64,000 nucleotides of DNA from Verrucomicrobiia bacterium (GCA_020440025.1 JAGROX010000003.1:6069-70068), one strand, 5' to 3'. Positions 2,163-45,666 are shown, counted from the stretch's first letter. Program-made: numbers and translations. The notes: a model not told the origin generated them from the sequence alone.

Positions 2163-2176
2163 ACGCGAACACCCCC

Positions 2177-3619
<1,443 letters not shown>

Positions 3620-6600: not shown

Positions 6601-6649
6601 CGGCGGGGATGACGACGCGCAGGGAGAAATATGGCTGAAGAGACATCAT
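3635..6649 (-). CDS. PVC-type membrane-bound dehydrogenase-like / HEAT-repeat / haem-binding (CxxCH) protein
   Basis: 1004 aa with an N-terminal hydrophobic anchor. The N-terminal region is propeller-like (VAMATDDRGRLWVAE, DNDGKHD). The middle is helical and HEAT-like. The C-terminal cytochrome c module has CMACH (nt 3977..3991), then GPDLTG and a later M ligand region (LMPEGLL). Confidence 0.8.
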   Translation of the reverse strand: MMSLQPYFSLRVVIPAVLSLSLLTTIAADITDTYQPRNSQKPGEEPPTPEETVAGITVPEGFQVTLFAGEPDVRQPVAMATDDRGRLWVAESYSYYEWEEKHEDRIIVFEDTDNDGKHDTRKVFWTGGNHVSGMTVGWGGVWVCDSPNLLFIPDRDRDDVPDGEPEIVLDGWTTTAKHNFFNGLTIGIDGWLYGRHGITSPSNVGAPGTPDEERTQFDCSIWRYHPYTKEFEIVCRGTTNPWGLDWNEKGEMFFTNNVNGHLWHGIPGAFYPRMGNRNDPFVAHVYDRIGMCADHLHHAGTTNDWTKTRDGKGVHGQLGGGHSHCGGMIYLGGKWPETYHGKMFMSNTHGRRLNMDSLEREGSGYVAKHGDDFLQVESPWFRGVQVIYGPDGDAYLSDWTDLGECHDNDGVHRSSGRIYKIIYDKPSPKPETDLYHASQDQLIEYQLHGNEWYARMSRHILQQRAKEGKIENPEGFKEIMRKVFAVHPKDETRLRLLLTLHATGTLPHDSLNDLVHDESETIRTWAVRICTESEYADDESIQIAFNPKDPSLQVRLAWASLMQRAHFEGLGWRVARQLASDPAIADDHNLPLMIWFGIKDHVAEDPDKAIAILAETKLTILQNHIARRLAEAGDMAAVDQMLAHLVKDFEPDSAAAILHGLADGFAGKKEIAAPVNWPALASHAAIIDPSEKELPALAAEIGLIFDRDATLAAMRESLQKKNRLPFHADYLALLGGARDRDSIPVILTLTSDKDLGSASIQALAAFGDSKVADGLITKFDGLSPEDRTHVVTALVGSPPMASKLLDALESGAIPRTAVTAYHARQIHSFKGSKADELKKRLTKVWGSTSSSSSEKQQLIKQYQDQLLPDVLAKADVANGHLKFQQLCMACHTLHGEGGAVGPDLTGANRSEVYYLLENIIDPSATLPQDFQLTVITRKDGSIVSGNVKGENEYAVTLRTLTDEQIINVEEIAKRETLTQSLMPEGLLTTMDADGVRDLIAYLQK

Positions 6650-6725
6650 GAGGACGGGAGTCTACGGATCGAGGTGGACGAAATGAAGTCCGCTTTCGCG
6701 GGTGGTGGCGATTTTTGCCGGCGGT

Positions 6726-7988
6726 TCAGAAACGCCAGACTACGCCCCCACGAATGCTCCAGTCCGGGCTTGCCGGGGTCAATCCCATTCCGGCGCCGGC
6801 TCGGAGAGTGACGTGGTGATTGGGAATCACAAAGGCTCCGAGACTGATCTCATGGTAGCCGTCGGCAGAAAAATCGCCCATAGCCTCGACGCTGACTGAC
6901 ACTGCATGAGTCAGAGTGTGGCGCAGGCCGGCGGCATATCCCCAGGCGGCGGTGCCGTCGTCCGGCAGGACGTTGATCAGATTCACAACGAGTTTGTCAT
7001 TGTCTCCCAAGTCGGTCTCCATGATGAAGCGACCGATGAATGCGTCTTGGCCGTGAACGTGGATGGTGCCCTCGTGATTGTGGTGTCCGTTTCCCTTCCC
7101 ATGATCATGTCCGCTGTCCTCCTCGTCATTCGTGTGGGAATGGGTGCCGTCCGTGTGATCGTGTTTGTCGTTGCTGCTGTGGGAATGACTCGCGCCGCTG
7201 GTATCAGTGTGGCCGGCGCCGTTGTGTGAGTGGTCGTGGCCATCGCCCGCGCCGCTATTGCCACCGCCGCTGGTGCCTCCACCCGTGCCGCTTGGATCGG
7301 GACAAGGCGGAGCGTCCGGTCCGAGATCGGGACAGGAACTAGTAGTCGTGGTCGCGGTCGCGGTGGTGCTACCGGAACCGTAGTCGGCCGGCGCCGCGCC
7401 GACCATAGGTTCGGAGGAGGGAGCAGGTGCGGAGCCAGACGTCAGTTCTGGCGAACCGCCGAGCAGCGCCGATACGGCATGGGCGATGCCGCCCCCGTTG
7501 CTGGAAGAGGTCGAGGAATTCGCGGGACGACTGGATCGGTTGGAGGAGGTTGGTCGAGAGGATTTGGTTCGGCTGCCGCTTCCCGAGTTGGAGGATGAGG
7601 TGCTGGTCACGATTCTTTGATTTTCATACTCCCGGGCGAATTCGTATCCTGCGGAGATGGCGAATCGAATGGGGAAGTTGGAATCGGGTGGCGACAGTTG
7701 AATGTGAATAGCCGGTGTCACTGATTCATAGGCCCAATTCATGCCTGTCTGATCGGTGAAACCAACCGAGACCCCGAGCGCCACCCGCGGTAGCACACCG
7801 ATGAGAATCTCCGGCTCGATGCCGAACTCGTAGTCAGTGCCGGATTGAGAATACTCCATGTTGGTGATCAGCACGCCATCGTATAACCCCGGCAGGTAGT
7901 AATCTTGAACCATGAGGAAATCCCTTCCGTGGTGAGCGGCGACAAGAGACGGGAACATCAGGCAAGCCAAGAAAATCAGGCGTTTCAT
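6726..7988 (-). CDS. Secreted beta-barrel-like protein with a Ser/Gly/Thr-rich and extremely His/Asp-rich internal insert
   Basis: I chose the ATG at 7988, which gives the signal peptide MKRLIFLACLMFPSLVAA. The longer ORF start at 8231 would overlap the upstream gene. The N- and C-terminal parts have alternating hydrophobic strands and a terminal ...GGVVWRF, which looks like an OMP. The insert at 7050..7610 includes GHDHSHNGAGHTDTSGASHSHSSNDKHDHTDGTHSHTNDEEDSGHDHGKGNGHHNHEGTIHVHG. Confidence 0.6.
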   Translation of the reverse strand: MKRLIFLACLMFPSLVAAHHGRDFLMVQDYYLPGLYDGVLITNMEYSQSGTDYEFGIEPEILIGVLPRVALGVSVGFTDQTGMNWAYESVTPAIHIQLSPPDSNFPIRFAISAGYEFAREYENQRIVTSTSSSNSGSGSRTKSSRPTSSNRSSRPANSSTSSSNGGGIAHAVSALLGGSPELTSGSAPAPSSEPMVGAAPADYGSGSTTATATTTTSSCPDLGPDAPPCPDPSGTGGGTSGGGNSGAGDGHDHSHNGAGHTDTSGASHSHSSNDKHDHTDGTHSHTNDEEDSGHDHGKGNGHHNHEGTIHVHGQDAFIGRFIMETDLGDNDKLVVNLINVLPDDGTAAWGYAAGLRHTLTHAVSVSVEAMGDFSADGYHEISLGAFVIPNHHVTLRAGAGMGLTPASPDWSIRGGVVWRF

Positions 7989-8083
7989 GGTGTCGGAAGA
8001 GGTCAAAAGAAATGGAAGAAAATGGGGAGAAGCGGAGCCGACCGGGATGATCAGCTCCGCCAAGAAGTTGGGCCCCCAAGGAA

Positions 8084-11000
8084 TCAAGGGGCCAGTGGCT
8101 CGAGCAACACGTTGCCCGAGAGAATGGGGGAATTCCTCAGACTGGTAGCTGACGAAGTCGGGGAGGGTAGCTGCGGCATCAAGAAGAATCCGTAGAGTTT
8201 CGGTCCGTTTCCGTCGTCGACGATCACACATTCGAACGGCACCGTTCTCGTCAATTCCGTCTCGGGATTCAGTGGGTTCGGGTCTAGTAGTTTGAACTGG
8301 CCGAAGCAGATGCCCGCGCGCGCGTTACGGGCCGCCCGGAAGGGCAGCGAGCTTCGTATCACGAGACTGACACTCCCGGGATTCGGGGAGATGACATTGA
8401 CCGCTTTCCTTTCGCCAGCCACCACCTCGACGGTGACGTCGAGTCGTGTACCAGGATCTACTAGCCCACCGTCGGCGAAACTCAGTAGCGCATTGCCCGC
8501 AGGATTCTCCATCAGGCCAAGCGCGTCGAGCGGAGAAAGCGAAGGATCGTAGCTGCGCCCGGTAACCTCCAGCAACAGCGGGCCGAACCCATCGCGATAG
8601 ACCCGATCTCGCGAGCCGGCGGGGCGGGCATTTTTGAACCAATCGAAGGCCGACAGTCTCAGGTCACCGTCATCCTGCACTTGGAAGGCACCCAGAAGCG
8701 ATCCTTTGCCGCCGTAGAGGAGACGACAGACATCGACGTAGCCATCCACATTCAGCGGACCAGAGTAGCTGACCAGAGTGCGGTCGGCGAGCCTGATGGT
8801 TCCGCGGGCGAGACCACGCGACGTGATTCGCATTGCGCCGATGGAGTATCCTTGGGGCACGCCGTCGTTGCCTGCCATGGAGGGATCGGGAAGCAGAGCA
8901 AAGGTGTAGCCACCTTCGAAGGCCGTCGAATCGGCGATTGGCTGCCGTGCGGCGAATGGGAGCGAGCTACGTCCGTCCGACACGTTGCCGGAGATCACGC
9001 CGCTGTTGCCCTGGATGGTAAAGGACACGTCCACTGGCGGGCGGCCGCGCCGGACGATGGTGAAGTCTCCCGTGGGAGAGTCGCCACCTTGTGGAAGGTC
9101 GAGACTGCCGCGGGTCCGGTGGATCGATTGGCCCAATTTCAGCATCACCGAGAATGCACCACTGGGTGTGGTGCGGATAGCGATGGTGCCCCCGAGCTGA
9201 TTGTTGAGCAACGGCGACCGCTCGATGATGCCAGCGAAAGAGCCGACCGAGTTGTCGGGCATCGGGTCGACCGCGAGTTGAAACGTCATCGGCGCGCTGC
9301 GTCCGGCCGCGTTGATCGCGAAGACCTGAATCTCGAAATCACCGGAGACGGCTGGAATGCCGAAGATTTCTCCAGTTCGTCGATTGTAACCCAGACCGCG
9401 TGGTAGGCCGCGAATGACGTAGCGGCCGTAGGGCAATTCATCGAGCGCGAAACTTCCCCTCTGTCCGACAGTGAATTCTGCGGGAAGTCCGGGATCGAGG
9501 ATTTCAGGTGCGCTGACGACGATGAGCGTTGCCGGATTACTGTGCAACGAACCGGCAGAATTGCGAACCTCGGCCACGTACTCCCCGGCGTCGCCTGGCA
9601 TCGCGGGAGAAACCACCAGCAGGGGACGGGTCGCTCCGGGAATCGGCGATCCGTTGTGCATCCACTGAATCGCGACTTCGGGACCGCTTGCGCCCACAAG
9701 GAATCGAGCGGTGCGCCCTTCAACCACCATCTGGTTGCGAGGCTGACGAGTCAGGTTGGGCGCTACCCAGCGAGCTGGTGAGGTGCTCCAGGAGAAGGCG
9801 AAGCCTTGGCGGTCAGCGTCGGTCGCGGGCGCATTGCTGCCCAACGCCATGGTGTAGTAACCGGGCTCGAGCGTCCAGGATCGAGTGATCATTTCCGCAG
9901 AAGAATTGTCACAGTGGTCGAGGTAGTCGAGATCCTCAGCCCAAGCCACGTTGCCGCGATTGTTGTAGGTGTGGCTGTCGCCGCCGTCGTTGTCCCAGCC
10001 TTTCCAGAGAGTTAGGGAGGGATACATGGAAGCGGTGCTGGCCTTGCGCTCGGGATCCGAGCCGCTCGGCCAAGGCACGTTGGCGTCCCGGGACATTTCG
10101 ATATCGAGCGTTAAGGGTTCAGTCACGTGCAGGGCCACCCAGCGAGACGTATGGGTCCAACCGACCGGTGGCTCGCCTTCCCCAAAGAGAGCGTTGTCCT
10201 CCCAACTCCATGCGCCGACGTGATCCGTGAGGCTGCCAGTGTCGCCGGAGCCCACGCTGATGGTCCAGGAATAGCCGATTCCGCCCGCCGCGGGGTCTTC
10301 CTGTCTCACCGGTTCGAAAGCATTGGCGGCATAGGTCAAGAGATAGCCCTGTCGGTTCGGGTTGTTCGAGGTAGCATTGCTGCCGAGCGCCAAGGTGTAG
10401 TTGCCTGCCGGCAGATGCCAGGTGCGGGTGATGGATTCCTCGGTGGAATTGTCGAGGTGATCAAGGTATCGCAAATCCTCAGCCCAGGCCACGTTGCCGC
10501 GATTGTTATAGGTGTGGCTGTCGCCGCCATCGTTGTCCCAGCTGCGGTAGAGCGTCAGCGAGGGATACATCGAGCTGGTGTCGGCCTTGCGATCGGGATC
10601 GGCCTGACTCGGCCAAGGCACATTGGCGTCGCGTGCCATGGTGATGGTGACGTAGCTTTCCTCCTCCACGTTGAGTGCCATCCAGTTTGAAGTATGGGTC
10701 CAGCCCACTGTCGGCTCGCCGGGAGAGAAGAGGGCATTGTCTTCCCAGCTCCAGGCTCCGACGTGTGAGGAAAACGATCCTGTGTCGCCATTCGCCACGG
10801 TTACGGTGTGGGCATAGCTGACACCACCTGCCGTTGCCAGTGGGTCTCCCTCGAATTCGGGTTGTGTGGTATAGGCAAAGCGGAGTCCCTGGCGAAGGGG
10901 GTTGTTTGCGGGTGCGTTGCTGCCAAGCGCCAGCGAGTAGTCGCCCGCTCGCAGGAACCAGGTGCGGGTGATGGTCTCTTGGGTGGAGTTGTCGACATGG

Positions 11001-12004
11001 TCGAAGTAGCGCAGGTCTTCGGCCCAGGGGACATCGCCGCGATTGTTGTAGGTGTGGCTGTCAACACCATCGTTGTCCCAGCCTTCGTAAACCGTGAGGG
11101 AAGGATACATCGACGTGGTGTCGGCCATACGACCCGGCTCATCGACACTCGGCCACGGCACATTGTCGTCGCGTTCCATGGTGACCGTAAAGGTCGTGTC
11201 GCGCAGCACCCGCAGAGCCACCCAGCTGGAAGTGTGTGTCCAGCCGACGGTGGGGTCGCCGGGAGCGAAAAGCGAATCGTCCTCCCAGCTCCACGCGCCA
11301 ACATGTTCGGAAAACTGCCCGGCGTCTGATCGATCGACGATCAGGGTGTGACGGTAGCCAATGCCACCGGGAGCAGGGTCAGTGATCGCGATGGTGCTGG
11401 TCGTGAAGCTGATCTGAAAGCCCTGGCGATCCGAATCTGTGGCCGGAGCGTTGCTGCCCAGCGCCAGCGTGTATTCCCCGGCTGGAAGCACCCAAGATCG
11501 GGTGATGCTCTCCTCGGTAGAATTGTCGATGTGATCGAGGTATTCGAGATCTTCGGCCCAAGCGACCACACCCCGATTGTTGTAGGTGTGGCTATCTCCG
11601 TCATCGTTGTCCCACCCCTGCCAGATCGTCAAGGAGGGATACATTGAGGCCACGCTCGCCTTTCGATCGGGCTGATCCACACTTGGCCAAGGCACGTTGG
11701 CGTCCCGGCTCATCGTCAACGTCAACACGGTGGACGCCTGGAGGTTTACGGCGACCCACTTGGAAGTGTGCGTCCAGCCGACGGTGGGTTCGGGAGGTGT
11801 GAAGAGAGAGTCGTCTTCCCAGCTCCACGCTCCGACGTGATTCGACAGCGTGGCAGAGTCGTTGCCATTGAGAGTGACAGTGTGGGCATAGCCGATTCCG
11901 CCGGATGGTCCCGGATCTGTATCAGCCACCGTGCCGGCCCGAGTGAAGCCGGCCCAAGGGATCAGGAGCCCCACGAGCAGGCAGGTTTTAGTTCTGGTTT
12001 TCAT
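8084..12004 (-). CDS. Giant secreted protein: 4x ~180-aa unrecognised repeat + I-set Ig-like + He_PIG-like + shared C-terminal tail
   Basis: 1306-aa ORF with signal peptide MKTRTKTCLLVGLLIPWAGFTRAG. Four tandem repeats span aa 30-743. The Ig-like segment is FLVGASGPEVAIQWMHNGSPIPG...GEYVAEVRNSAGS. The He_PIG-like segment is IRGLPRGLGYNRRTGEIFGIPAVSGDFEIQVFAINAAG. The tail is paralogous to those of 12068..16447 and 40564..45666. Confidence 0.8.
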   Translation of the reverse strand: MKTRTKTCLLVGLLIPWAGFTRAGTVADTDPGPSGGIGYAHTVTLNGNDSATLSNHVGAWSWEDDSLFTPPEPTVGWTHTSKWVAVNLQASTVLTLTMSRDANVPWPSVDQPDRKASVASMYPSLTIWQGWDNDDGDSHTYNNRGVVAWAEDLEYLDHIDNSTEESITRSWVLPAGEYTLALGSNAPATDSDRQGFQISFTTSTIAITDPAPGGIGYRHTLIVDRSDAGQFSEHVGAWSWEDDSLFAPGDPTVGWTHTSSWVALRVLRDTTFTVTMERDDNVPWPSVDEPGRMADTTSMYPSLTVYEGWDNDGVDSHTYNNRGDVPWAEDLRYFDHVDNSTQETITRTWFLRAGDYSLALGSNAPANNPLRQGLRFAYTTQPEFEGDPLATAGGVSYAHTVTVANGDTGSFSSHVGAWSWEDNALFSPGEPTVGWTHTSNWMALNVEEESYVTITMARDANVPWPSQADPDRKADTSSMYPSLTLYRSWDNDGGDSHTYNNRGNVAWAEDLRYLDHLDNSTEESITRTWHLPAGNYTLALGSNATSNNPNRQGYLLTYAANAFEPVRQEDPAAGGIGYSWTISVGSGDTGSLTDHVGAWSWEDNALFGEGEPPVGWTHTSRWVALHVTEPLTLDIEMSRDANVPWPSGSDPERKASTASMYPSLTLWKGWDNDGGDSHTYNNRGNVAWAEDLDYLDHCDNSSAEMITRSWTLEPGYYTMALGSNAPATDADRQGFAFSWSTSPARWVAPNLTRQPRNQMVVEGRTARFLVGASGPEVAIQWMHNGSPIPGATRPLLVVSPAMPGDAGEYVAEVRNSAGSLHSNPATLIVVSAPEILDPGLPAEFTVGQRGSFALDELPYGRYVIRGLPRGLGYNRRTGEIFGIPAVSGDFEIQVFAINAAGRSAPMTFQLAVDPMPDNSVGSFAGIIERSPLLNNQLGGTIAIRTTPSGAFSVMLKLGQSIHRTRGSLDLPQGGDSPTGDFTIVRRGRPPVDVSFTIQGNSGVISGNVSDGRSSLPFAARQPIADSTAFEGGYTFALLPDPSMAGNDGVPQGYSIGAMRITSRGLARGTIRLADRTLVSYSGPLNVDGYVDVCRLLYGGKGSLLGAFQVQDDGDLRLSAFDWFKNARPAGSRDRVYRDGFGPLLLEVTGRSYDPSLSPLDALGLMENPAGNALLSFADGGLVDPGTRLDVTVEVVAGERKAVNVISPNPGSVSLVIRSSLPFRAARNARAGICFGQFKLLDPNPLNPETELTRTVPFECVIVDDGNGPKLYGFFLMPQLPSPTSSATSLRNSPILSGNVLLEPLAP
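9776..11917 (-). repeat. Four in-frame tandem ~540-bp (about 180-aa) repeats inside CDS 8084..12004
   Basis: Repeat units cover about aa 30-205, 206-385, 386-568 and 569-743. Each carries HVGAWSWED(D/N)(S/A)LF, (T/P)VGWTHTS.W(V/M)A, (A/D)NVPWPS, MYPSLT, WDND(G/D)(G/V)DSHTYNNRG, WAEDL.Y.DH.DNS and LALGSNA. Confidence 0.9.
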
Positions 12005-12067
12005 TGTTATGTCCTTGTTTGGAGTTTGGTTGGGTTTCGGGTCAGCAAAATTTTTAGAAGCAGGCTA

Positions 12068-15000
12068 TCAGGGGAGCGGATCAAACCGCACCCGCCCAGA
12101 AAGGATCGGGGAGTTTCTCAATGTGGTCGGAGGTGGGCCGACTGACGGCATCTGCTGCAGCGTGAAGAAGCCGTAGCCGTGGTTTCCGGTGCCGTCGTTC
12201 ACCACCACAAAACGAAGAACTGATCGCCGTCGGCGTGAGGGCTCGCTCGCCAGAGTCGTGTCGAGATCAATGAGGAGAAAGGATCCCGCTCCGGTTCCGG
12301 TCGCTCCCGGAATGAATCTTCTTCCCTTTCCCGGCTGGAGCACGAAGCGAACCAGTCCAGGGTTTTCTCCCGTAATCGTTGCTGACGATGGATGGCGAGC
12401 GGGGAATTCCGCTTCTGCCACATCGAGCCGATTTGCCGGATCCGGTGCTCCGCCTTCAGTGAAGACAAGGGAAGCGCGATCGAATCCGGAAATGGTTTCG
12501 CCGCGAGGAGGGATATCGTAGAGGCCTCCCCGCACGTTCAGTTCGATCGAATCGAATCCTTCCGGGTAGCTGCGGGTCTTCGCTGTTTGCAATGCCTTGC
12601 TCCAGCTGATCGCAGATCCTTCGAGTCGATGTGTCAGTGCAGGGGCGATGTGCAGAACCCCGGCCAACGATCCGGTGCCGCGGTAGAGCAATTGAAACAG
12701 GCCGATGTTACCCCCTTCGGTCACTGGCGCTGCGAAGCGCATCCGGGTGCCGTCCGAGAGAAAGAGTCCACCCCGTGCCATGCCCCGGCCGTCAACGGTG
12801 AAACCGCCGATGCCGTCTCCCTGAGGAATGGTGTCATTCCCGATGAATTCGGCGGGAAGCGTGAGCGCGAGCGTGTGATTGCCGACGAATTCACCGGGAT
12901 TGGACGCGGCACCCGCGCCGGAAAAGTCGAGATGCTCGGCTTCGATCGTGACTCTACCTGTCAGCGTCCGGGTTGCGGGGTCGATGGTCATCGCGAGGAT
13001 GATGTCTGGCTGGTTTCGCCGCCGGATGGTGACAGTCGAGTGGGGATCGATTCCTTCGCTCACCGTCCAGGATCCCCGAACGGGAAGCCGCTTGCGACCC
13101 ATTTGCAGAATTCCGCTGTAGGACGCGAACCGACTCGTGGTGATCCGCAGCCAACCGGCGAGGTTTTCGTTTTGCATCAAATCGCGGGGGAGGACTGCTT
13201 CATAGATACCGAGCGCCTCCTCGGTGAAAGGCCGCACTTCGAGCATGACGGTGGTCGGCTTGCCGCTCGATCCTGCCGCATTGAAGGCTGTGATACGCAC
13301 CGGGAAGTTTCCCGGTCTTCGTGGTCTTCCGCTGATCATGAGTTCGTTCCTCGGGATCGAGAGCCCCGGTGGCAGGGCAGAAGCGGCGAAGCGGGTGGGA
13401 GAATTCTTCGCGGAGAGCGGCCCGATATATTCCTGGCCTACGATGGCGTAGGGGAGTGAGGTGGTATCGAAGACGGGGCGCTGAATCACGGTCAGCGTGA
13501 CCGGATTGCTGGTCACGCTTCCCGCGCCGTTGGAGATGCGAATTGCGTAATTGCCGGAATCGGCTCCCTGCGCATTGCGAAATGACAAAGTGGCACTATT
13601 GGCTCCGGAAATCGGCTTGCCGCCGCGTAGCCATTGATAGTGAAGTCCGGAGCCGGAGGCACGGGAGGTAAAATTGGTGGAGCGTCCTTCGACGATCGTT
13701 CGATCCACCGGTTGCAGGTCGATCGTCGGTGCTGGATAGACTTCGACCGAAATGCCGCGGCTTTCGGTGCTTCCTTCGGAATTAATGATGGTAATCTGGT
13801 AGGTGCCGGCGGTAGTTGCCGTCACATCAGTGATCTCCAACACCGGGCCGATCTGGCCATCCAGTGGTGTGCCGTTATGGAACCATTGGAGGTCAGCGCC
13901 AGCGCCGAGGAATTCGACTGCCAATCGCAAGGTGCCGCCCGGTGCCACCGCCGTATCCGCAGGTTCCCTGACCACGCGAGGCACTCCGTTGTAGGCGGCC
14001 AGATCGGGATCATTCCCATCGAGTACGCCGTCGAGATCAGCGTCTCCTCCGAGTCGATCTCCTTGGCCGGGAGTGACTCCGAGAAAGGTAATACTCTCCG
14101 TGCCTGTGAGGCCATCCAACAGGGTTGAACGCGAGACCATACCCTCTTCACTCCGGTCGGATCGGTAGAGCTGCGACCCGGACTGGTAGAGCCAGCGACG
14201 ATCCTCGCCGACGAATCGGCCGCGCACCACCAGTTCACAATCGCCCGCAGCGACTCGGCTTTCGAGAAAGGTGAGTTCGTTGAGCAGGGCTTGATCGGCG
14301 CGGTTGAACGGGGTAACGGTTGCGCTACGCCCAACCGCAGGAGCTGTGCCAGTATCATAGCACAGGAGGAATGCGGTGACGTCCTGAAGTTCCTGAATAG
14401 TTCGCAGATTGTCCAGGACGTAGGGATGGCCGAGTGGCATCTCGAAGCCGGTGCCGTCGTGCAACAGGCCGAAGCCTGAGGGGGATTCAGCGCCGGGACG
14501 GGGATCGAAAAAGAGTCGTTGGTAGACCGTTCGCAGGGTGGCGGTTTTTACCGGTTGCACCAACCCCGTCTCCTGGGGGAGGTCGAGATTTCCGTCAGAG
14601 CCATTCGGGTAGGCGTGGCAGGTGATGCAATGGGACTTGTTGTGGTCATTGAACAGGTCGCGGCCGATAGTCGGATTGCCCGGTCCGGCACTGGAGGGCA
14701 GGCTGCGGTCAGGGTTGCGATTGGGATTGGGATGATTGCGGAGCGTCAGGAGGTAGGCCGTGAGATCTGCCATGTCCTCGACGTCGATGAGTTCGCCACC
14801 CAGCAAATTGGGAAAAGTGGGATTGAAATCGGCAATTTCTGCGCGGTCTCCGCGCCAGTGGAAAGGGGCGCCGCCCGCGAGTCCTCTCAGCGTCTGCGTG
14901 ACCATGGGGCCTTTCATCGGATGCATCACGCGCGTGCGTGGGGTGGTATCGTGAACGGAGAGATTGGCACCGAGGACGGTCTGGAGTTCGCCTGCGGGAT

Positions 15001-16447
15001 CGCCGAGATCCCAGGCGAGCCCGTCGCGGTCGGCGTCGAGGTGGCAGATGCCACAGGAAACGAGACCGTTGCCGCTGAGCCGAGAGTCGAAGAGATAACC
15101 GCGACCGCTTTTGACTGAGCGGGGTAGTGGCTCGTGGTCGCTCAGTGACGTTTCGGCGACAACGGCAGGCGTGGTGATCTGAGTATCGATCACGCTGATG
15201 GTTTCGCTGAGCTTATTGAGCACAAAGAGGCGTTCGTTGGCGGCGTTGTAGGCAAGCCCGCGAGGGCCGCGCATTTCGTTGGATTCCCCGGTTCCACCGA
15301 TGCGTATGTCGACTCGCTCGGTGATGGCTCCGTCGGTGCTGCTGATTCGTGCGATGCGATCGCTGGCGAAGGCGGCGGTCCAGAGATGGTTTCCGTCGGG
15401 CTCGAAGACGAGGGCGGATGGCTGGGACAGCGCCACGGCGGCGGCTCCTGGATTGGGGAGCAGATTGAGATCAATGCCAGGATTGAGATCGTGAATTGAC
15501 GCGTTGCCCGTGGACAGATCGATGCTGGCGAGTCGGCTAAGGGCGAACTTTCCGTTCAACTCCGGCTCGAAACGGATTAGGTTTTGAGACTCGGTGTGGC
15601 TTGCCCACACGGTGGATCCGTCGGGGCTGACGGCGATGCCTAGAAAATTGGTGCCGATACCGTCGAAGTAGCGCTCAACGGAGTGGGTGGTGGTATCGAT
15701 CTCGGCGAGGTCATGGTCCAGCACCGTGTAAGGGATCCGGGAGTCATTTGTAGGGACGATGACGGTCGTGCGGGGTGCGGTTGGAAGAGCGGGATTTTCC
15801 GGCTCCGTGGGATTTGGTGCGGCATTGCGTGGCAACACGGTGGTGTTGTTCCCTGAATGGAGGAAGGAAACGAAAACTCGGTCGCCGGAGGGACTCGCGG
15901 CGAGGGCGGTGGGATAAAGTCCGTCGAGCGGGATGGTGTCGAGCACTGCGCCGGTGGTGAGGTCGTGGACCCAGATTTCGTTGAAGCGAGCGCACGACAC
16001 GAAGGCCTTTCCGGCAGCGAATACAACGTCAGCCGGTTCGTCGCCGGTCGCCACGGTGGTGGCCACCGTTCCGGTCCCGTCGGGATTGAGCAGGATGATG
16101 GTGAGGCTGTCGGACACCTCATTGACTACCCAGACTTCGCTGTTGCTGCGGGCACGAACGCTGACGGGTTCGAGCCCGACAGGAATCTCCGCGGTCTTCA
16201 CAAGATCGACCGTTGCGCCGGAGACTTCGAAAACGCTCAAGGACGCTGCCTCCGAATGAACCGCCAGCAGTCGCTCACCATCCGGGGTGAGCGCAATGGG
16301 GTGCGTCTGTCTCGCTTCGAACCCGGAATACGATTCCGCCTCCTGCGCCCAACTGCGATTTTGACAGGTGATGACGGCCATTATCGCCCCCGCGAGTAGA
16401 GCGGCGTCGACTAGCGATCGAAAAGGAAGCGTGGTTCGGAAAATCAT
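12068..16447 (-). CDS. Giant secreted protein: beta-propeller (YVTN-like) + di-haem cytochrome c peroxidase-like + 2x Ig-like + He_PIG-like + shared C-terminal tail
   Basis: I chose the ATG at 16447 (MIFRTTLPFRSLVDAALLAGAIMAVITCQNRSWAQ). Propeller-like repeats include PIALTPDGERLLAV, ALAASPSGDRVFVS and GIAVSPDGSTVWAS. Two CxxCH motifs are present: CGICH at nt 15041..15055 and CITCH at nt 14615..14629, with MHPMKGPM..FHWRGD between them. A calcium-site-like DADLDGVLDGNDPD follows. There are two Ig-like modules (LQWFHNGTPLDG..GTYQITIINSEGS and YQWLRGGKPISG..GNYAIRISNGAGS). Confidence 0.8.
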   Translation of the reverse strand: MIFRTTLPFRSLVDAALLAGAIMAVITCQNRSWAQEAESYSGFEARQTHPIALTPDGERLLAVHSEAASLSVFEVSGATVDLVKTAEIPVGLEPVSVRARSNSEVWVVNEVSDSLTIILLNPDGTGTVATTVATGDEPADVVFAAGKAFVSCARFNEIWVHDLTTGAVLDTIPLDGLYPTALAASPSGDRVFVSFLHSGNNTTVLPRNAAPNPTEPENPALPTAPRTTVIVPTNDSRIPYTVLDHDLAEIDTTTHSVERYFDGIGTNFLGIAVSPDGSTVWASHTESQNLIRFEPELNGKFALSRLASIDLSTGNASIHDLNPGIDLNLLPNPGAAAVALSQPSALVFEPDGNHLWTAAFASDRIARISSTDGAITERVDIRIGGTGESNEMRGPRGLAYNAANERLFVLNKLSETISVIDTQITTPAVVAETSLSDHEPLPRSVKSGRGYLFDSRLSGNGLVSCGICHLDADRDGLAWDLGDPAGELQTVLGANLSVHDTTPRTRVMHPMKGPMVTQTLRGLAGGAPFHWRGDRAEIADFNPTFPNLLGGELIDVEDMADLTAYLLTLRNHPNPNRNPDRSLPSSAGPGNPTIGRDLFNDHNKSHCITCHAYPNGSDGNLDLPQETGLVQPVKTATLRTVYQRLFFDPRPGAESPSGFGLLHDGTGFEMPLGHPYVLDNLRTIQELQDVTAFLLCYDTGTAPAVGRSATVTPFNRADQALLNELTFLESRVAAGDCELVVRGRFVGEDRRWLYQSGSQLYRSDRSEEGMVSRSTLLDGLTGTESITFLGVTPGQGDRLGGDADLDGVLDGNDPDLAAYNGVPRVVREPADTAVAPGGTLRLAVEFLGAGADLQWFHNGTPLDGQIGPVLEITDVTATTAGTYQITIINSEGSTESRGISVEVYPAPTIDLQPVDRTIVEGRSTNFTSRASGSGLHYQWLRGGKPISGANSATLSFRNAQGADSGNYAIRISNGAGSVTSNPVTLTVIQRPVFDTTSLPYAIVGQEYIGPLSAKNSPTRFAASALPPGLSIPRNELMISGRPRRPGNFPVRITAFNAAGSSGKPTTVMLEVRPFTEEALGIYEAVLPRDLMQNENLAGWLRITTSRFASYSGILQMGRKRLPVRGSWTVSEGIDPHSTVTIRRRNQPDIILAMTIDPATRTLTGRVTIEAEHLDFSGAGAASNPGEFVGNHTLALTLPAEFIGNDTIPQGDGIGGFTVDGRGMARGGLFLSDGTRMRFAAPVTEGGNIGLFQLLYRGTGSLAGVLHIAPALTHRLEGSAISWSKALQTAKTRSYPEGFDSIELNVRGGLYDIPPRGETISGFDRASLVFTEGGAPDPANRLDVAEAEFPARHPSSATITGENPGLVRFVLQPGKGRRFIPGATGTGAGSFLLIDLDTTLASEPSRRRRSVLRFVVVNDGTGNHGYGFFTLQQMPSVGPPPTTLRNSPILSGRVRFDPLP

Positions 16448-33196: not shown

Positions 33197-33227
33197 CGGA
33201 AACCTGTTTTGAAACCAAGCGCCACAC

Positions 33228-34502: not shown

Positions 34503-34532
34503 CGAAACGATAAATTTCCTACCCGAATAATC

Positions 34533-34967
34533 ATGAAGACAAACCAGAAAACTCGTAGTGCGCAGGCTCGCGGTTACACCTTGATGGAGATGCTCTTGGT
34601 CTTGGGGATCATCGGGCTCCTCCTCGGACTCGGAGTCTACTCGATGGTGGGCGTGCTGGGTGATGCCGACGATAGCAAGGTGAGAGCCGACATTCAGAAT
34701 TTCCACGCCAACCTCATTCGATACAAAACCAAGGCGGGCATCTACCCGACCACGGAGCAGGGCTTGGAAGCCTTGGTGAAGCGTCCCAGCAGTGGTCCGG
34801 CACCGAGGGCTTGGAAACAGTTCCTCAAGGAATCTGCCCTCGTTGATCCCTGGTCGAAACCCTATCAATATCGCTACCCCGGAAAGCACAATCCTGACAG
34901 CTACGACATCTTCAGCTTCGGCATGGATGGTCAGGAAGGAACCGAGGACGATATTGGAAACTGGTAG
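34533..34967 (+). CDS. gspG: Major pseudopilin (GspG family)
   Basis: Prepilin leader ...QARG/YTLMEMLLVLGIIGLL with Glu at +5. The GspG core is VRADIQNF..AL..YK...G.YPT.EQGL.ALV......W........DPW..PYQY..PG.....YDI.S.G.DG..GT.DDI.NW. Confidence 0.9.
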   Translation: MKTNQKTRSAQARGYTLMEMLLVLGIIGLLLGLGVYSMVGVLGDADDSKVRADIQNFHANLIRYKTKAGIYPTTEQGLEALVKRPSSGPAPRAWKQFLKESALVDPWSKPYQYRYPGKHNPDSYDIFSFGMDGQEGTEDDIGNW

Positions 34968-34995
34968 TCTCAGGACAGCCTTTGCCTCCGAAGGA

Positions 34996-36763: not shown

Positions 36764-36770
36764 AACAGCC

Positions 36771-39001: not shown

Positions 39002-39002
39002 A

Positions 39003-39527: not shown

Positions 39528-39531
39528 CAAC

Positions 39532-40563: not shown

Positions 40564-43500
40564 TCAGGGCGTTTGAGTCATTTCGATGCCGACCGTGCGG
40601 AAGGCACCGCGGACACCAACGACCGGGATTTTGACAAGCCCGGCCCCCACTTGGGTGCCGAAGCTTTCATCCTGGAGGAAGACTCCGTTTACCGTGCTCC
40701 GCCCGTCAGGATGGAACATGGAACCGGCAAACGATCCCTTAACCTTGTTGGCTTTCACCACAGTGCGCAGGGCAGTCACGGGTTCCACCGGAAGCAAGGT
40801 GAACGCATTCCTGAGGCTGAACATGGTGGGGAGATTTGGATTGGCGTCGCCAGTGTAGGCGGCGTCAATCTCCCGGAAGTTCAAGCCGAGGGAATCAGCG
40901 AAGGCCGTCGCGTTTGGCACCGGAATCCAGCGGCTGGTCTGGCCGTCGAGATCCTGAACCGGGAAGCCATTGGGATAGCTCCTCTCACGAGTATCTGCAG
41001 CTTTGAGCCACTTGATTCCCGGGTTGGGATCGCCATCGAGGGCGCCGCCGCGCGAGGCTTGACCGAGGTCACCGATATCGAAGATTCCTCCAACGAAGGA
41101 ATCCTTATTCCGATACGGTGTGCTCCACAGCACTGCCTGATTGCTCTGCGAGAGGCAGAGCGAGACGCTGGCGCGTTGGGCATCTCCGAGGAGTCCCACC
41201 AGGCGCATGATTCCGCGGTTGTTGATGGAACCGCTCAGGGTACCAACACCTGCCGGCACGTTGACACTGTCACCGGCAACATCCGGCATCAGAGCCACCG
41301 AAAGGCGAACCACGCCACCCGGATTGCGCACCGGCTTGGCGATGCGGAAGCCGCGTACAGTGGCGGTAGTGCCATTGAGGTCGCCGGTGATGAGGTCCGA
41401 TGTCGTGGCGAGATCGAGGGTCACCGTGTGATCACCGAGACGGCGATTCGGGAAGACGGCCACGATCTGCTGTGCGGTGGATTGGGCGTTGGCGAAGGTG
41501 CCTCGTGCGCGCCGAGTCGGCTCGCCTTGAACTTCGAGAACTCCGGTCCATGCACCCACCTTATTCACCGTGATCTTGACCGAGCCGCTGGGCAGTGGCG
41601 TTCCTCCTATGCTTTCAAGCAGCCCCTGATAGGTCCCGAGGAATGGGTAATCCTCCACCGAGAAGGCCAGACTCAGAGTGCCCGCCGGTCGTCGACCGTC
41701 GAACTTCCGGATCACGGCTCCTGCATCACTACCGGGTGCCAGTATGGTGCCGGTAATGTGCTTGGTATTGGGATCGTAGGTGAGTCCGCGAGGCAGTCCC
41801 GAGACCAGGATGCGAAGGCTGCTGTCATCGAGGAAACTCAGGTCGATATCGACCGTGTCTCCCACGTTGAAGCGCTTGGCTACGGCAGCCAGTTGGCTTT
41901 CCTCGAAATCGGAGAAGCCGTTGCCGTCACCATCAGTGGCATCCGGAGCGAAGGTCGCTCCGATGGTCTTGGTGGCATCCATCAATACGGACAGCGGATT
42001 GGTGGTGCCGGAGGCATCACCCGTCCAGCCCGTGAAGCTGAAGCCTGCTTCAGGAACAGCGGTCAGTTCGACCGTGTCTCCCGCCGGCACAGGGCCAGAG
42101 GCAGCACCGGTGATGGCACCGTTGGTCGTGGCATCGATGGTCAGGTCGAAGGTCGGCACGTCGAAACTGAAGATCGACACCGTTTCACTGACTTCGTTGG
42201 TCACCACCAGTAGGGCCTGAGCTGTCGGGGAATCCGTCGCAGGAATGAAGGTCAATCCTTCCGGACTGACATCGCCAGCCTGGCTGAGGAAAGCTTCGAA
42301 CACCGGTGTCGCCGGCGTGGAGAGGTCGAAGACCATCACGCCGTTGGAGCGCTCAAGGCCGATGAAAGCCTTGGGCTGACCGTTGATCATACCGATCTCG
42401 ACGCCTTCGGGTTCGGGGCCCTTGTTGTCGCTGCGGCCATCGTCAAAGAAGGGCAGGCCGTAACTTTGGACCGCCTTTTCGATCATGTCGCCGCTGTCGA
42501 ACACCATGGCACCACTCGAATCGAGGATGGAGAACGAACGCCCGCCGAGAGCGAGTATGCGATCAATGTCACCGTCGCCGTCGATGTCACCACGAAGACC
42601 CAGGGAATTCGAGATCGTCAGGCGACCGAGGTTCTTGTCGAGCTTCAAGTCGGCTTCATTGGGGAACACCGTATCATCGAGATCGACAACCCCGTCTTTT
42701 ACCCGAGCCGTTTCTGCGTTCACGAGGAAGTCGTCGCGGTCGTCACCTTCGTTGGCGATCACGTAGAACGTCTGGCCGCCGGATACAAAGGTATCGATGC
42801 TGTCGGGCATGTAGAGACCGAAGACCGAATTGCCGGTGGTCATCTGCCCGATGTTACCGCCCGTGAGGCTGTCCCGGTCGCTGAAGTCGGCGAGAAGTCC
42901 GCTGAAGTCTTTTTCGCCCAACGGAACCACCGAGGTGAATGTACCTGTGGCGATGTTGAGGATCGCGACTGCATTGTTTTCCTGGAGCGTGACCATGGCG
43001 GTCAGACCGTCGGGAGAAACCGCGATGTATTCGGGCTCGAAGTCCTGTGAGGGAGGCATCAATTCACCGACTTCATCGGCAACGGTATCACCGTCGTTGT
43101 CGAGACCGTCACCTTCGCCGCTGAAAATCCGCACACCGGCGGCTTTCAGGGCATCGCGTTGGCTGTCGAAGGCCGTGAAGTCGGCAGTCGTCACCGCCGG
43201 GGCTGCAAAACCGCCGCTCACATCGATGATGCTCACGGTACCAAGTGCGGTGCCGAAACCGGCATTGCCGTCGAGGGCTTCCCCTTCATCTGCCGTCAGG
43301 ACCTTGTTGCCATCGGGCGTGAAGGTGACCATGTCGGGCAGAGAACCCACCGTGGCGGTGCCAAGATGAGCCAGGGTGGCGGCGTTGAGGAACACCACGT
43401 GACCGGGATTGTTCTTATCGACACCATCGGGGACGGCGACGGCCACGAAGCCGTTTTTGGTCGCCACACTGGTCACTGAAGTTCCGGTCAGATTGAACGG

Positions 43501-45666
43501 TGCCTGAGTGAAGTCGATACTCTGAACGGCTACCGGACTTGCGGGATTCGACAGATCAAGGACGGCGATGCCGGTTCCCTGAGTGACGAAGAGACGAGCG
43601 CTACCAGCGTCGAATGCCGAGATTTCAGCACCTCCAACGGTGTTGGTTGTGGACACGTGAGCGACGGTCGACGGAAACGCAGGAGCCGTGTTTGCGACCG
43701 CCGGGTTCGTGTTGTGAATGTTCACTTCGTCAAAAGCCGAGATGCCATCGCCGTCGACGTCGGTGAGATCCTTGCCGAAAGTGGCGCCGATCGTCTTGTT
43801 CGCATCGAAGGTTACTGTCAGCGGATTGACCGACCCGGAAGCATCGCCGGTCCAGCCGGTGAAGACTGAGCCTAGTTGAGTCGAAACTGCCTGGATGGTC
43901 ACGGTGGAACCTTCAGCATAGAGAGCGTTACCATTGAGCAGACCGTTGATCTGACCTCCGGTGGCTGTGCCCTGAGACAGGGTGAAGTAGTTGGTGGCCG
44001 TGCCTCCGATGCTCACGTTTCCACCGGAATCGATGGTGAGTGTCGCCACGTAGGAGCCCACGCCGCTGTTCGGCAGAATGCGCTGAATGTCGACCTTGGC
44101 AGGACCTCCCTGGCCAAAGGTATTCTGAATGCCTCCGGCAAACACCGTGTAGCCCGCGCCTTGGACACCCGCCGCGATGAACGGATTATGGGCAGACCAA
44201 CCGTTGGCAAACTGGGCCGGTTCAGCAGAACTCACGGTAGCTGCCTCGTTGCCGTTTGCGGTGAGGCCTCCCATCATGTTGTACTGACCCTGAATGATCG
44301 TGGCCGCAGTACCGAGTCCGCTGGCATTGATGGTGAATGGCAGAGAGGCACCGTCGGAAACGGTAGACCGGCTGACATAGAGCGTGCGAGTCGGATCTCC
44401 ATTGGTGACTCCACCAGCGCTCGGACCTGTGAGAGGAGCATTGCTGAAGTTTCCAATGACGCCGAAGTAGAGGTCGGTTCGGGTGAACCAATTGGCACCG
44501 TAGGTGGCTTCCAGTTCAGCATTGAGGATCGCAATCGTTCCAGGGCTGGAACTGTCACGAACGTCAGTTGCCGGTCCGAGATTGGCGAAAAGGTTCACGT
44601 TGGAACCGGTGCCGCCCTCTGCCTGGAAACCGAGGACCAGATCACCGGGAGCCGGTGGCCAAGTGCCCGTGAGAGTGATGAAGGTCGCTCCGATGGTCTT
44701 GTTGCCATCGAGAGTCACCGTGAGCGGATTCACGGTGCCTGATGCGTCACCTGTCCAGCCTCCGAAAACAGTGCCAGACTGGCCAGCGACGGCAGTCAAA
44801 GTCACCGTCGATCCGTCGGCGTAGAGGGTGCCACCCTGAAGACCGTTGATCTGTCCACCAGTAGCTGCGCCTGCGGTGAGTGTGAAGTAGCTGGCGGCTG
44901 AACCGCTGGCAATCACGTCGCCGGAATCAGAAATCGTGATGGTCGCCACATAGGTGCCTTCACCGGTCGTGGGAAGAATACGCTGGATGTCGACTTTTGA
45001 GTTGGCACCAGCATTGAAGGTATTCTGAATACCACCGGCGAAAACCGTGTAGGCCGCACCCTGTACCCCTGAAGTGATAAAGGGGTTGTGGGCTGACCAG
45101 CTATTGGCAAACTTCGCGGGCTCCGCGCTGCTCACCGTGGCAACCTGACTGCCATCGGCCGTCAGAGTGGTGAGCATGGAATACTGCCCCTGAAGAATGG
45201 TGGCAGCGGTTCCAAGACCGGAGGAGTTGAAGCTCGAGAAGGCCAGGGAATCTCCGTCAGCTGTCGCAGGACGACTGGCGTAGATCGTTCTCGAAGGGTC
45301 TCCATTGGTGACCGAACCAGCGGACGGTCCCGTCAAGGGAGCGTTGCTGAAATTGGCGATCACACCAAAATAGAGATCCGTCCGGTTTTCCCAGCCGACG
45401 CCGAAAGTCGCCTGCATTTGTGCGGCGATGTTAACCAAGGTTCCAGCGTTCGGAGTGTTCCGAAGGTCAGTGGCGGAGCCAAGGTTATAGAAGAGGTTGG
45501 TATTGGAGCCGGTTCCGCTCTCAGCCTGGACACCGAGGACAAGATCGCCCGGTGCCGGTGGCCACGTATCGGCAAAGGCCGATGGCACGACAGCCATGGC
45601 CAAAGCGATGAGCAGGGCGCCCGTATTTCGTAGGATATTCACGAAGTTTGGTAGTGGGATTGGCAC
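40564..45666 (-). CDS. Giant secreted protein: 2x ~300-aa repeat (unknown domain + InlB-B-like repeat) + choice-of-anchor-I-like domain + He_PIG-like + shared C-terminal tail
   Basis: 1700 aa with signal peptide ...GALLIALAMAVVPSAFA. Repeats cover aa 34-334 and 335-630. There are three WTGDASG..NPLTVT....KTIGATF modules. The central region (aa ~665-1168) has LPDMVTFTPDGNKVLTADEGE, FEPEYIAVSPDGLTAMVTLQENNAVAILN, YVIANEGDDRD, GDIDGDGDIDRI and PEGLTF...LLVVTNEVSETVSIFSF, which I recognise as choice-of-anchor I family (often annotated alkaline-phosphatase-like). Confidence 0.8.
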   Translation of the reverse strand: MPIPLPNFVNILRNTGALLIALAMAVVPSAFADTWPPAPGDLVLGVQAESGTGSNTNLFYNLGSATDLRNTPNAGTLVNIAAQMQATFGVGWENRTDLYFGVIANFSNAPLTGPSAGSVTNGDPSRTIYASRPATADGDSLAFSSFNSSGLGTAATILQGQYSMLTTLTADGSQVATVSSAEPAKFANSWSAHNPFITSGVQGAAYTVFAGGIQNTFNAGANSKVDIQRILPTTGEGTYVATITISDSGDVIASGSAASYFTLTAGAATGGQINGLQGGTLYADGSTVTLTAVAGQSGTVFGGWTGDASGTVNPLTVTLDGNKTIGATFITLTGTWPPAPGDLVLGFQAEGGTGSNVNLFANLGPATDVRDSSSPGTIAILNAELEATYGANWFTRTDLYFGVIGNFSNAPLTGPSAGGVTNGDPTRTLYVSRSTVSDGASLPFTINASGLGTAATIIQGQYNMMGGLTANGNEAATVSSAEPAQFANGWSAHNPFIAAGVQGAGYTVFAGGIQNTFGQGGPAKVDIQRILPNSGVGSYVATLTIDSGGNVSIGGTATNYFTLSQGTATGGQINGLLNGNALYAEGSTVTIQAVSTQLGSVFTGWTGDASGSVNPLTVTFDANKTIGATFGKDLTDVDGDGISAFDEVNIHNTNPAVANTAPAFPSTVAHVSTTNTVGGAEISAFDAGSARLFVTQGTGIAVLDLSNPASPVAVQSIDFTQAPFNLTGTSVTSVATKNGFVAVAVPDGVDKNNPGHVVFLNAATLAHLGTATVGSLPDMVTFTPDGNKVLTADEGEALDGNAGFGTALGTVSIIDVSGGFAAPAVTTADFTAFDSQRDALKAAGVRIFSGEGDGLDNDGDTVADEVGELMPPSQDFEPEYIAVSPDGLTAMVTLQENNAVAILNIATGTFTSVVPLGEKDFSGLLADFSDRDSLTGGNIGQMTTGNSVFGLYMPDSIDTFVSGGQTFYVIANEGDDRDDFLVNAETARVKDGVVDLDDTVFPNEADLKLDKNLGRLTISNSLGLRGDIDGDGDIDRILALGGRSFSILDSSGAMVFDSGDMIEKAVQSYGLPFFDDGRSDNKGPEPEGVEIGMINGQPKAFIGLERSNGVMVFDLSTPATPVFEAFLSQAGDVSPEGLTFIPATDSPTAQALLVVTNEVSETVSIFSFDVPTFDLTIDATTNGAITGAASGPVPAGDTVELTAVPEAGFSFTGWTGDASGTTNPLSVLMDATKTIGATFAPDATDGDGNGFSDFEESQLAAVAKRFNVGDTVDIDLSFLDDSSLRILVSGLPRGLTYDPNTKHITGTILAPGSDAGAVIRKFDGRRPAGTLSLAFSVEDYPFLGTYQGLLESIGGTPLPSGSVKITVNKVGAWTGVLEVQGEPTRRARGTFANAQSTAQQIVAVFPNRRLGDHTVTLDLATTSDLITGDLNGTTATVRGFRIAKPVRNPGGVVRLSVALMPDVAGDSVNVPAGVGTLSGSINNRGIMRLVGLLGDAQRASVSLCLSQSNQAVLWSTPYRNKDSFVGGIFDIGDLGQASRGGALDGDPNPGIKWLKAADTRERSYPNGFPVQDLDGQTSRWIPVPNATAFADSLGLNFREIDAAYTGDANPNLPTMFSLRNAFTLLPVEPVTALRTVVKANKVKGSFAGSMFHPDGRSTVNGVFLQDESFGTQVGAGLVKIPVVGVRGAFRTVGIEMTQTP
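43777..45567 (-). repeat. Two in-frame tandem ~900-bp (about 300-aa) repeats inside CDS 40564..45666
   Basis: aa 34-334 and aa 335-630 both begin TWPPAPGDLVLG.QAE.GTGSN.NLF.NLG.ATD.R. They share long identical runs (LTGPSAG, LGTAATI.QGQY, SAEPA.FAN.WSAHNPFI..GVQGA.YTVFAGGIQNTF, KVDIQRILP). Confidence 0.9.

Follow-up and report, generated by a model that had tools for sequence, protein, structure and literature searches.

Why should three giant secreted proteins with quite different cargo end in the same C-terminal module, and what would that module do for them? This question is raised by a stretch of 64,000 nucleotides from a Verrucomicrobiia bacterium (GCA_020440025.1 JAGROX010000003.1:6069-70068), referred to in its entirety as the window, in which a first-pass annotation had pointed out three such genes and had proposed that their C termini be aligned, used for an iterative profile search and modelled for a fold search. 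Translation placed the genes, all on the minus strand, where they had been described, with the quoted motifs present and the quoted endings of two of the proteins (...LRNSPILSGNVLLEPLAP and ...LRNSPILSGRVRFDPLP) found exactly as written. We refer to the proteins as p1 (1306 amino acids, aa), p2 (1459 aa) and p3 (1700 aa), and to their common C-terminal domain as the tail. The analysis below leads to a large domain family that may serve to retain its cargo at the cell surface.

Homology of the three tails

Pairwise BLASTP comparison yielded significant alignments for all three pairs. The p1 and p2 tails aligned over 449 aa with 33% identity (E 6e-61), and the p3 tail aligned over ~300 aa with those of both p1 (E 1e-8) and p2 (E 3e-11). 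A family hidden Markov model (HMM) was also built from more than 130 foreign members, leaving out the window sequences as well as p3-type sequences. With E values computed for a search space of 1.84 billion sequences (Z=1.84e9), this model recognised the tails of p1, p2 and p3 at 7e-113, 3e-103 and 9e-24, respectively, so that the pairwise alignments and the foreign-only profile together confirm the proposed C-terminal module in all three proteins. A six-frame HMM scan of the 64-kb window found no fourth copy.

The alignment of p3 covered HMM positions 46-443 of 508 and thereby reached into the third sub-domain of the tail (see below), with only the last ~45 residues diverging. This p3-type ending recurs in other database proteins, such as P0037 (P numbers denote database members of the family). 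Judged from its sequence, the p3 tail is a divergent member of the family.

An undescribed and very large domain family

The tail had not been recognised as a named sorting domain in the first-pass annotation, and this holds against the databases searched. Neither Pfam (at E<=10) nor NCBIfam (at E<=1) gave a match in the ~390 aa after the He_PIG-like segment, and none of the sorting-signal models of these databases (PEP-CTERM, LPXTG, GlyGly-CTERM, the C-terminal domain (CTD) of the type IX secretion system (T9SS) and others) matched the tails. In a profile search of all PDB sequences the tail proper was likewise without a match, the only hits being confined to the He_PIG-like part of longer rows (SraP and the immunoglobulin-like (Ig) domains of alpha-galactosidase). 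No terminal transmembrane helix or basic cluster was visible in the sequences of p1, p2 and p3, full-text literature searches aimed at the tail domain or its cassette found no description of either, and a collection of 15 billion proteins held no exact copies of the window proteins that were tested. The tail is an undescribed domain family.

Because a word-indexed homologue search badly under-sampled this family (three matches with a single tail, eight with a 22-sequence profile), an exhaustive HMMER profile search was needed. Run over 1.84 billion cluster representatives (50% identity clusters), it revealed 8,644 tail-carrying clusters at E<=1e-3, 6,919 at E<=1e-10 and 2,269 at E<=1e-30. Statistics on the position of the tail were then taken from the best 150 representatives plus the three window proteins, and those on the terminus from the best 150 representatives. 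Near-full-length copies of the tail ended within 10 residues of the C terminus in 145/165 cases (88%), in proteins reaching 5,838 aa, and a hydrophobic run in the first 45 residues, taken as a crude proxy for a signal peptide, was present in 95 of the 130 members starting with Met. Some proteins carried two to four copies, of which some were internal or N-terminal, directly after the signal peptide.

A Pfam scan of 44 members found Ig domains before the tail in 39 and He_PIG in 30 of them (E<=1e-4), while the remainder of these proteins held 48 Pfam families, including Calx-beta, PKD, the proprotein-convertase P-domain, RCC1 and propellers. PATR, cadherin-like, DUF4347 and peptidase M6 domains were seen in additional members. 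What is conserved is thus the cassette Ig(n) - He_PIG - tail, with a varied remainder. There is strong support for the first-pass proposal that a modular cassette is joined to diverse cargo, given this breadth of domains, a family of at least 8,644 clusters and the C-terminal position of the tail among the best matches.

A few members depart from the common layout. P0004, P0005, P0020 and P0057 hold three to four full tails spaced ~400-800 aa apart, the first of them just behind the signal peptide, and hardly any other cargo could be recognised in them, an arrangement that matters for deciding between an anchor and a working domain. Genes for tail-bearing proteins often stood in tandem in the genomic loci inspected (L numbers), L004 having three of them and L001, L003, L009 and L011 a pair each. 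The taxonomic range rests on four relatives with an organism name, all from Verrucomicrobiota: metagenome-assembled genomes (MAGs) labelled Verrucomicrobiales (73% identity), Verrucomicrobiia and 'Verrucomicrobia bacterium', and Prosthecobacter debontii (WP_078813469.1). Two close loci recovered from a single-protein scan were both from Verrucomicrobiota MAGs.

Predicted structure and conserved residues

The whole p1 tail was predicted by AF2 to be all-beta, with about 24 strands mostly of 6-9 residues (pLDDT 77, pTM 0.79). By their spacing, these strands fell into three blocks of about eight, namely A (residues 1-112 of the p1 tail), B (113-245) and C (246-392). The top Foldseek match of the whole tail was TbpB (E 7e-4, TM 0.18, rmsd 17 A), next to other weak matches to a DUF3598 two-barrel protein, propellers and, locally, fatty-acid-binding proteins (FABPs). 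Since this search was ambiguous, the middle sub-domain was re-predicted alone from 38 sequences, with pLDDT 93.8 and pTM 0.85. For this predicted model of block B, the best Foldseek matches were nitrobindin, lipocalins and designed 8-strand barrels, at TM 0.45-0.61 (probability ~1, E 4e-3, with 7-14% identity in the structural alignments). All of the top 50 matches were soluble calycins, with no membrane barrel (OmpA, OmpX, PagP) among them. The modelling thus points to an all-beta tail whose block B would form a barrel resembling nitrobindin and lipocalins, and the tail as a whole is probably a set of three small soluble up-and-down beta-barrels of calycin type.

When the blocks were compared by hhalign, A and C matched around a common 'TGxFSGxLxL...FxG' hairpin (75% probability, E 2.6e-5), and nothing significant was found for A with B or B with C. 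Because only the A-C comparison gave a signal, and a modest one, the tail is not established to be three homologous barrels.

Of the 42 positions with a conservation of 80% or more, 20 fell in sub-domain B, which is marked by the motifs PQG, LADG, LY..GS..G, W.K and R.Y..GF. These positions include P136, Q137, G138 (100%), D160 (100%), Y183, S188, W208, Y222 and F226, and the conserved non-glycine residues were concentrated in this sub-domain. The end of the chain was also conserved, consisting of FLLPQLP, a Pro/Thr-rich linker, SPxLSGxVxL and Pro. The last residue was Pro in 87/139 chains and aromatic in 3/139, so the usual C-terminal beta-signal of outer-membrane proteins (OMPs) is missing.

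Cargo of the window proteins and the copper-type gene cluster

The positions and make-up of the three genes and of the genes clustered with p1 and p2 are listed in Table 1. The cargo named in the first-pass annotation (a four-fold repeat in p1, a propeller plus di-haem region in p2, choice-of-anchor I in p3) proved correct, the di-haem match being weak and sub-threshold. All three translations begin with signal-peptide-like N termini, in which a lipobox was not evident by eye. A He_PIG-like segment, claimed for all three proteins, was found above the Pfam cut-off in p2, but was sub-threshold in p1 and went undetected by Pfam in p3.

Table 1. Coordinates and domain make-up of the tail-bearing genes and the genes clustered with p1 and p2 (positions in the window).
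Feature	Position	Strand	Description	Basis
DUF7133/cytochrome c protein	3635-6649	minus		
OMP-like protein	6726-7991	minus	~420 aa, ends ...VWRF; Ser/Thr/His-rich insert	
Gene p1	8084..12004	minus	1306 aa; signal peptide, 4 CorA/MopE-like Cu(I)-binding repeats, 1 Ig, He_PIG-like segment, tail	open reading frame and translation
p1 Ig (I-set-like) domain	9518..9760	minus	residues 749-829	Pfam I-set (E 2.3e-6), Ig_3, Ig_2
p1 He_PIG-like segment	9269..9409	minus	residues 866-912	Pfam He_PIG E 7.4e-4, 20.4 bits, below cut-off 24
p1 tail domain	8087..9262	minus	392 aa; no database name	family HMM E 7e-113
p1 tail, middle sub-domain B	8534..8941	minus	tail residues 108-243	predicted structure and conservation
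Gene p2	12068..16447	minus	1459 aa from ATG; signal peptide, beta-propeller, MauG/MbnH-like di-haem region, two Ig, He_PIG, tail	translation
p2 Ig-like domains	13487..13990	minus	~residues 820-987	Pfam Ig_3, two stretches, E 7.7e-13; I-set E 2.4e-12
p2 He_PIG domain	13244..13477	minus	residues 991-1068	Pfam He_PIG E 5.3e-6, 27.2 bits vs cut-off 24
p2 tail domain	12071..13222	minus	384 aa	BLASTP to p1 tail E 6e-61; family HMM E 3e-103
Gene p3	40564..45666	minus	1700 aa; signal peptide, two N-terminal repeats each with Flg_new_2, choice-of-anchor I, further Flg_new_2, degenerate He_PIG-like motif, divergent tail	translation
p3 He_PIG-like motif region	41647..41868	minus	VSGLPRGLTYDPNTKHITG	aligns to He_PIG part of family HMM; no Pfam He_PIG match
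p3 tail domain	40567..41640	minus	358 aa; divergent subfamily with its own ending ...RGAFRTVGIEMTQTP	family HMM E 9e-24

In p1, four CorA/MopE-like repeats were visible in the sequence. The Pfam model Cu_bind_CorA (PF18252) scored two stretches, at 46.7 bits against a cut-off of 27 (E 3.6e-12), a match at the level of the family profile. In p2, Lactonase, Ig_3 and I-set exceeded their Pfam cut-offs, while the di-haem region matched CCP_MauG (PF03150) weakly, with 23.5 bits under a cut-off of 25.6 (E 9.7e-5), and the NCBIfam MbnH family weakly as well (E 0.016). In p3, choice-of-anchor I was recognised by both Pfam (choice_anch_I, PF22494; 314 bits vs a cut-off of 32, E 2e-93) and NCBIfam (NF038117; 459.7 bits vs a cut-off of 300), and Flg_new_2 by Pfam (E 4e-28). 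The choice-of-anchor I domain is so called because the anchor or sorting domain that accompanies it at the C terminus varies. At its N terminus (~residues 33-640; 43750-45570, minus strand), p3 also has two direct repeats of ~300 aa, DTWPPAPGDLVLG...NPLTVT.D.NKTIGATF, each comprising a domain without a Pfam match followed by a Flg_new_2 repeat.

The genes for p2, p1, the OMP-like protein and the DUF7133/cytochrome c protein form a co-oriented cluster (3635-16447, minus strand). Its first three genes occurred in the same order in L003 (10001-21812) and L011 (10001-20759), with the DUF7133 gene following in L003, and the cluster recurs without genes of a type II secretion system (T2SS). In the window as well as in both of these loci, the p1- and p2-type partners carry the same tail. 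In methanotrophs, the corA-corB and mopE-SACCP pairs are co-transcribed, CorA, MopE and SACCP reside at the cell surface, and the di-haem enzyme is thought to make the kynurenine copper ligand (PMC3912023). The p1 and p2 pair mirrors that of CorA/MopE and di-haem peroxidase in methanotrophs. In its gene content, the cluster resembles a module for copper acquisition at the surface, here in a lineage other than the methanotrophs. The presence of the same tail on p1 and p2 fits with keeping them together at the surface, and suggests a surface-tethered copper-capture pair of the CorA/MopE type outside the methanotrophs.

The OMP-like protein of this cluster had no Pfam or NCBIfam match, and its OMP-like N- and C-terminal thirds were homologous to the genes of 331 aa (L003) and 359 aa (L011) at the same position. 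The OMP-like proteins of the cluster carry a variable Ser/Thr/His-rich insert and end in ...(V/I)RF. In the window this insert is a low-complexity segment of ~200 aa, part of which is rich in His (HDHSHNGAGH...HSHSS...HDHGKGNGHHNHEG); a metal-binding loop carried by an outer-membrane channel is a possible reading of it.

Genomic context and the neighbouring T2SS-like operon

A T2SS-like operon is located on the plus strand of the window (31376-40329) and encodes GspE, GspF and GspG (above the NCBIfam cut-off), pseudopilins of H-, I-, J- and K-like type, and a protein resembling GspM. It also holds proteins of 426 aa and 282 aa without an assigned family. No secretin (GspD) gene was present anywhere in the 64-kb window. 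The tail genes had been described as bracketing this operon, which is loosely put: p3 is indeed convergent with it at a distance of 235 bp, but p1 and p2 lie ~15 kb away, with at least 10 unrelated genes in between, including those for an ABC/GldG-like transporter, a nuclease, a RecQ-type helicase, a FadL-like porin and a histidine kinase.

Seven further long loci that hold family members (L003-L006 and L009-L011) were examined for linkage to a T2SS, the short contigs of the closest relatives of p3 not being counted. An adjacent T2SS operon was found in 0/7, one of these loci having a T2SSE gene ~10 kb off. The link of the tail proteins to the neighbouring operon, as originally suggested, thus found no contextual support in the seven loci. 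The family is therefore not characterised by physical linkage to a T2SS, which was rejected as a consistent feature, and this argues against a T2SS-specific cassette. The T2SS could still be the export route of the tail proteins, because T2SS substrates need not be linked to their machinery. As a class, these substrates are defined by GspD/E-dependent export and share no sequence signal.

A common partner gene was likewise rejected, since the neighbour of p1 (6726-8231) and that of p3 (45793-47013) are unrelated to each other. Elsewhere in the window, a gene on the minus strand (47415-58757) encodes a 3780-aa TpsA/filamentous-haemagglutinin-like protein with a TPS domain and DUF3739, without a tail. 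No gene for a TpsB transporter adjoins it, the neighbouring genes being those for a SurA-like peptidyl-prolyl isomerase and a Porin_5 protein, and a similar TpsA gene was seen near a tail-bearing gene in L006. At the start of the window (54-3619, plus strand), a PSCyt2/PSD1 (DUF1549/DUF1553) gene running off the edge is followed by a DUF1501 gene, a pair typical of Planctomycetes and Verrucomicrobia, within the Planctomycetes-Verrucomicrobia-Chlamydiae (PVC) group, in keeping with the origin of the window.

Proposed surface retention and its alternatives

The reading that we favour, at a rough probability of 0.45, is that the tail acts as a non-covalent cell-surface retention module. The tail would then be an independently folding domain of ~390 residues that forms the last unit of the Ig(n) - He_PIG - tail cassette, which Verrucomicrobiota would attach to Sec-exported extracellular domains of a great many kinds. 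After export by Sec, the protein would cross the outer membrane, plausibly via a general T2SS, and the tail would bind a conserved envelope component non-covalently. This could be a lipid, lipopolysaccharide (LPS) or a glycan moiety that sits inside the barrels or between them; its binding site would be made up of the polar and aromatic residues that are invariant in barrel B (PQG, D160, Y183, W208 and Y222). The Ig and He_PIG domains would form a stalk holding the cargo off the surface, and in the window the tail would retain the CorA/MopE-like copper-binding protein, its partner di-haem enzyme and the choice-of-anchor I protein there.

We infer this surface location, ligand binding and export route of the tail proteins from several lines of evidence. 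Surface retention is favoured because an extreme C-terminal bias is combined with very diverse cargo, including a 'choice-of-anchor' domain; because, by analogy, the CorA/MopE pair has a surface precedent; because barrel B is predicted to combine a ligand-binding fold class with a conserved polar and aromatic cluster; and because the proteins with two to four copies resemble avidity-type anchors (S-layer homology (SLH) and LysM domains), unlike sorting signals. Of the delivery, anchoring or sorting role originally envisaged, anchoring is our best guess, and a pure sorting signal is a poor fit with proteins that have two to four copies, some of them N-terminal or internal. Other observations weigh against retention. 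The tail is internal only, with other domains after it, in P0034, P0075, P0116 and P0150, and P0004 seems to be mainly tails and linkers, so that the tail could be its outward-facing binding part. In addition, the subdivision into three barrels is based on the strand pattern and one weak profile-profile match, and no function can be transferred from the predicted structure because its matches are at the level of the fold only (E 4e-3, TM 0.45-0.6).

The barrels might instead capture an external ligand rather than hold on to their own cell, which would make the tail an outward-facing binding or adhesion module and the common 'working end' of many extracellular proteins; candidate ligands would be hydrophobic small molecules, metal chelates, polysaccharides or the surface of another cell. 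We consider this rather unlikely, even though the calycin-like fold class typically binds ligands, barrel B holds the polar and aromatic cluster, and P0004, P0020 and P0057 consist of three to four tails plus linkers with little other cargo. A single ligand function would need to serve cargo as unlike as copper proteins, proteases, PATR giants, cadherin-like repeats and choice-of-anchor I, and both the extreme C-terminal position of 145/165 copies and the conserved last strand with its terminal Pro better suit a positional role. That position, together with the conserved chain end (FLLPQLP, Pro/Thr-rich linker, SPxLSGxVxL, Pro) and a diversity of cargo as seen with CTD-type signals, could also be expected of a C-terminal secretion or sorting signal like the T9SS CTD, read by a dedicated outer-membrane translocon or by the T2SS and perhaps removed or modified later; p3 moreover adjoins the T2SS-like operon. 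A signal of ~390 aa would, however, be four times the size of known CTD signals, and would occur in two to four copies per protein, some directly after the signal peptide and some internal-only. Furthermore, the seven other loci showed neither a conserved partner gene nor a T2SS operon beside family members, and the last 45 residues of p3 differ from those of the family although the domain is conserved. A sorting signal therefore strikes us as improbable.

An outer-membrane-embedded beta-barrel, inserted by the beta-barrel assembly machinery as an autotransporter- or OmpA-like anchor, was rejected on the statistics of the C-terminal residue, the strand length and the position of the domain, and has very little chance of being correct. 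About 24 antiparallel strands in an all-beta domain at the C terminus of surface proteins would in principle suit such a barrel, and some members are annotated, owing to their PATR repeats, as 'autotransporter-associated beta strand' proteins. Predicted strands of mostly 6-9 residues are short for a membrane barrel, the top 50 Foldseek matches of block B were soluble calycins, tail copies also lie N-terminally and internally between soluble Ig domains, and Pfam gave no autotransporter or OMP match. A bolder extension of surface retention, which we regard as a long shot, is that Ig-He_PIG-tail is the address label of an undescribed surface-display pathway across Verrucomicrobiota, and perhaps other members of the PVC group. 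The tail would then be recognised by the outer membrane or insert a bound lipid, and would play a role like that of the T9SS CTD or of Slam-dependent barrels for thousands of proteins.

Comparison with known systems

In soil, water and the gut Verrucomicrobiota occur in abundance, and they encode numerous giant extracellular proteins, the targeting of which is not understood. The interest of the tail lies in its abundance and complete lack of annotation rather than in any new mechanism demonstrated for it. With a name and a ligand for the tail, thousands of 'hypothetical' C termini would become annotated at once, a named tail would offer a sequence handle for predicting the surface proteome of Verrucomicrobiota, and a truly portable retention module could be used for surface display in bacteria that are hard to engineer.

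Among known systems, the T9SS CTD of Bacteroidota is alike in being beta-rich, in its extreme C-terminal position on hundreds of unrelated cargo proteins in one phylum, and in often standing behind Ig-like spacers. It differs in being a single Ig-like sandwich of ~80-100 aa that occurs once per protein and is cleaved, a lipid-glycan anchor taking its place, whereas the tail is ~390 aa long, has several predicted barrels, occurs in two to four or internal copies and matches no CTD model. The SLH, LysM and choline-binding repeats are modular, combined with diverse cargo and sometimes repeated, and they provide retention without a dedicated sortase, as proposed for the tail; LPS-bound T2SS substrates such as heat-labile enterotoxin can be likened to it as a case of non-covalent envelope retention. 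These anchor modules have no relation in sequence or fold to the tail, however, and for the tail the binding is a proposal.

In fold, the calycins (lipocalins, nitrobindin/THAP4-type proteins and FABPs) come close in that block B is predicted to be a small up-and-down antiparallel barrel, the calycin barrel having 8 to 10 strands. They differ in showing no Pfam (E<=10) or PDB sequence match to the tail, and known calycins are mostly single-domain proteins, while the tail is probably a C-terminal triplet on giant proteins. Surface lipoproteins of the TbpB/fHbp type (Slam substrates) are similarly multi-barrel, all-beta and surface-exposed, but the TM of TbpB was only 0.18, the bilobed handle-plus-barrel arrangement was not found in the tail, and Slam is proteobacterial, so that this resemblance may reflect only strings of beta-meanders. 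The beta-domains of autotransporters and OMPs are also C-terminal all-beta modules on large surface proteins, from which the tail is set apart by the absence of a terminal aromatic beta-signal, by short strands, by its matches to soluble barrels and by its internal and N-terminal copies. By the tests run, the tail could be assigned to none of these groups, its closest analogues being the T9SS CTD and the non-covalent envelope anchors in function and the calycins in fold. It thereby represents an instance of a known theme, that of a C-terminal module common to many surface proteins of one phylum.

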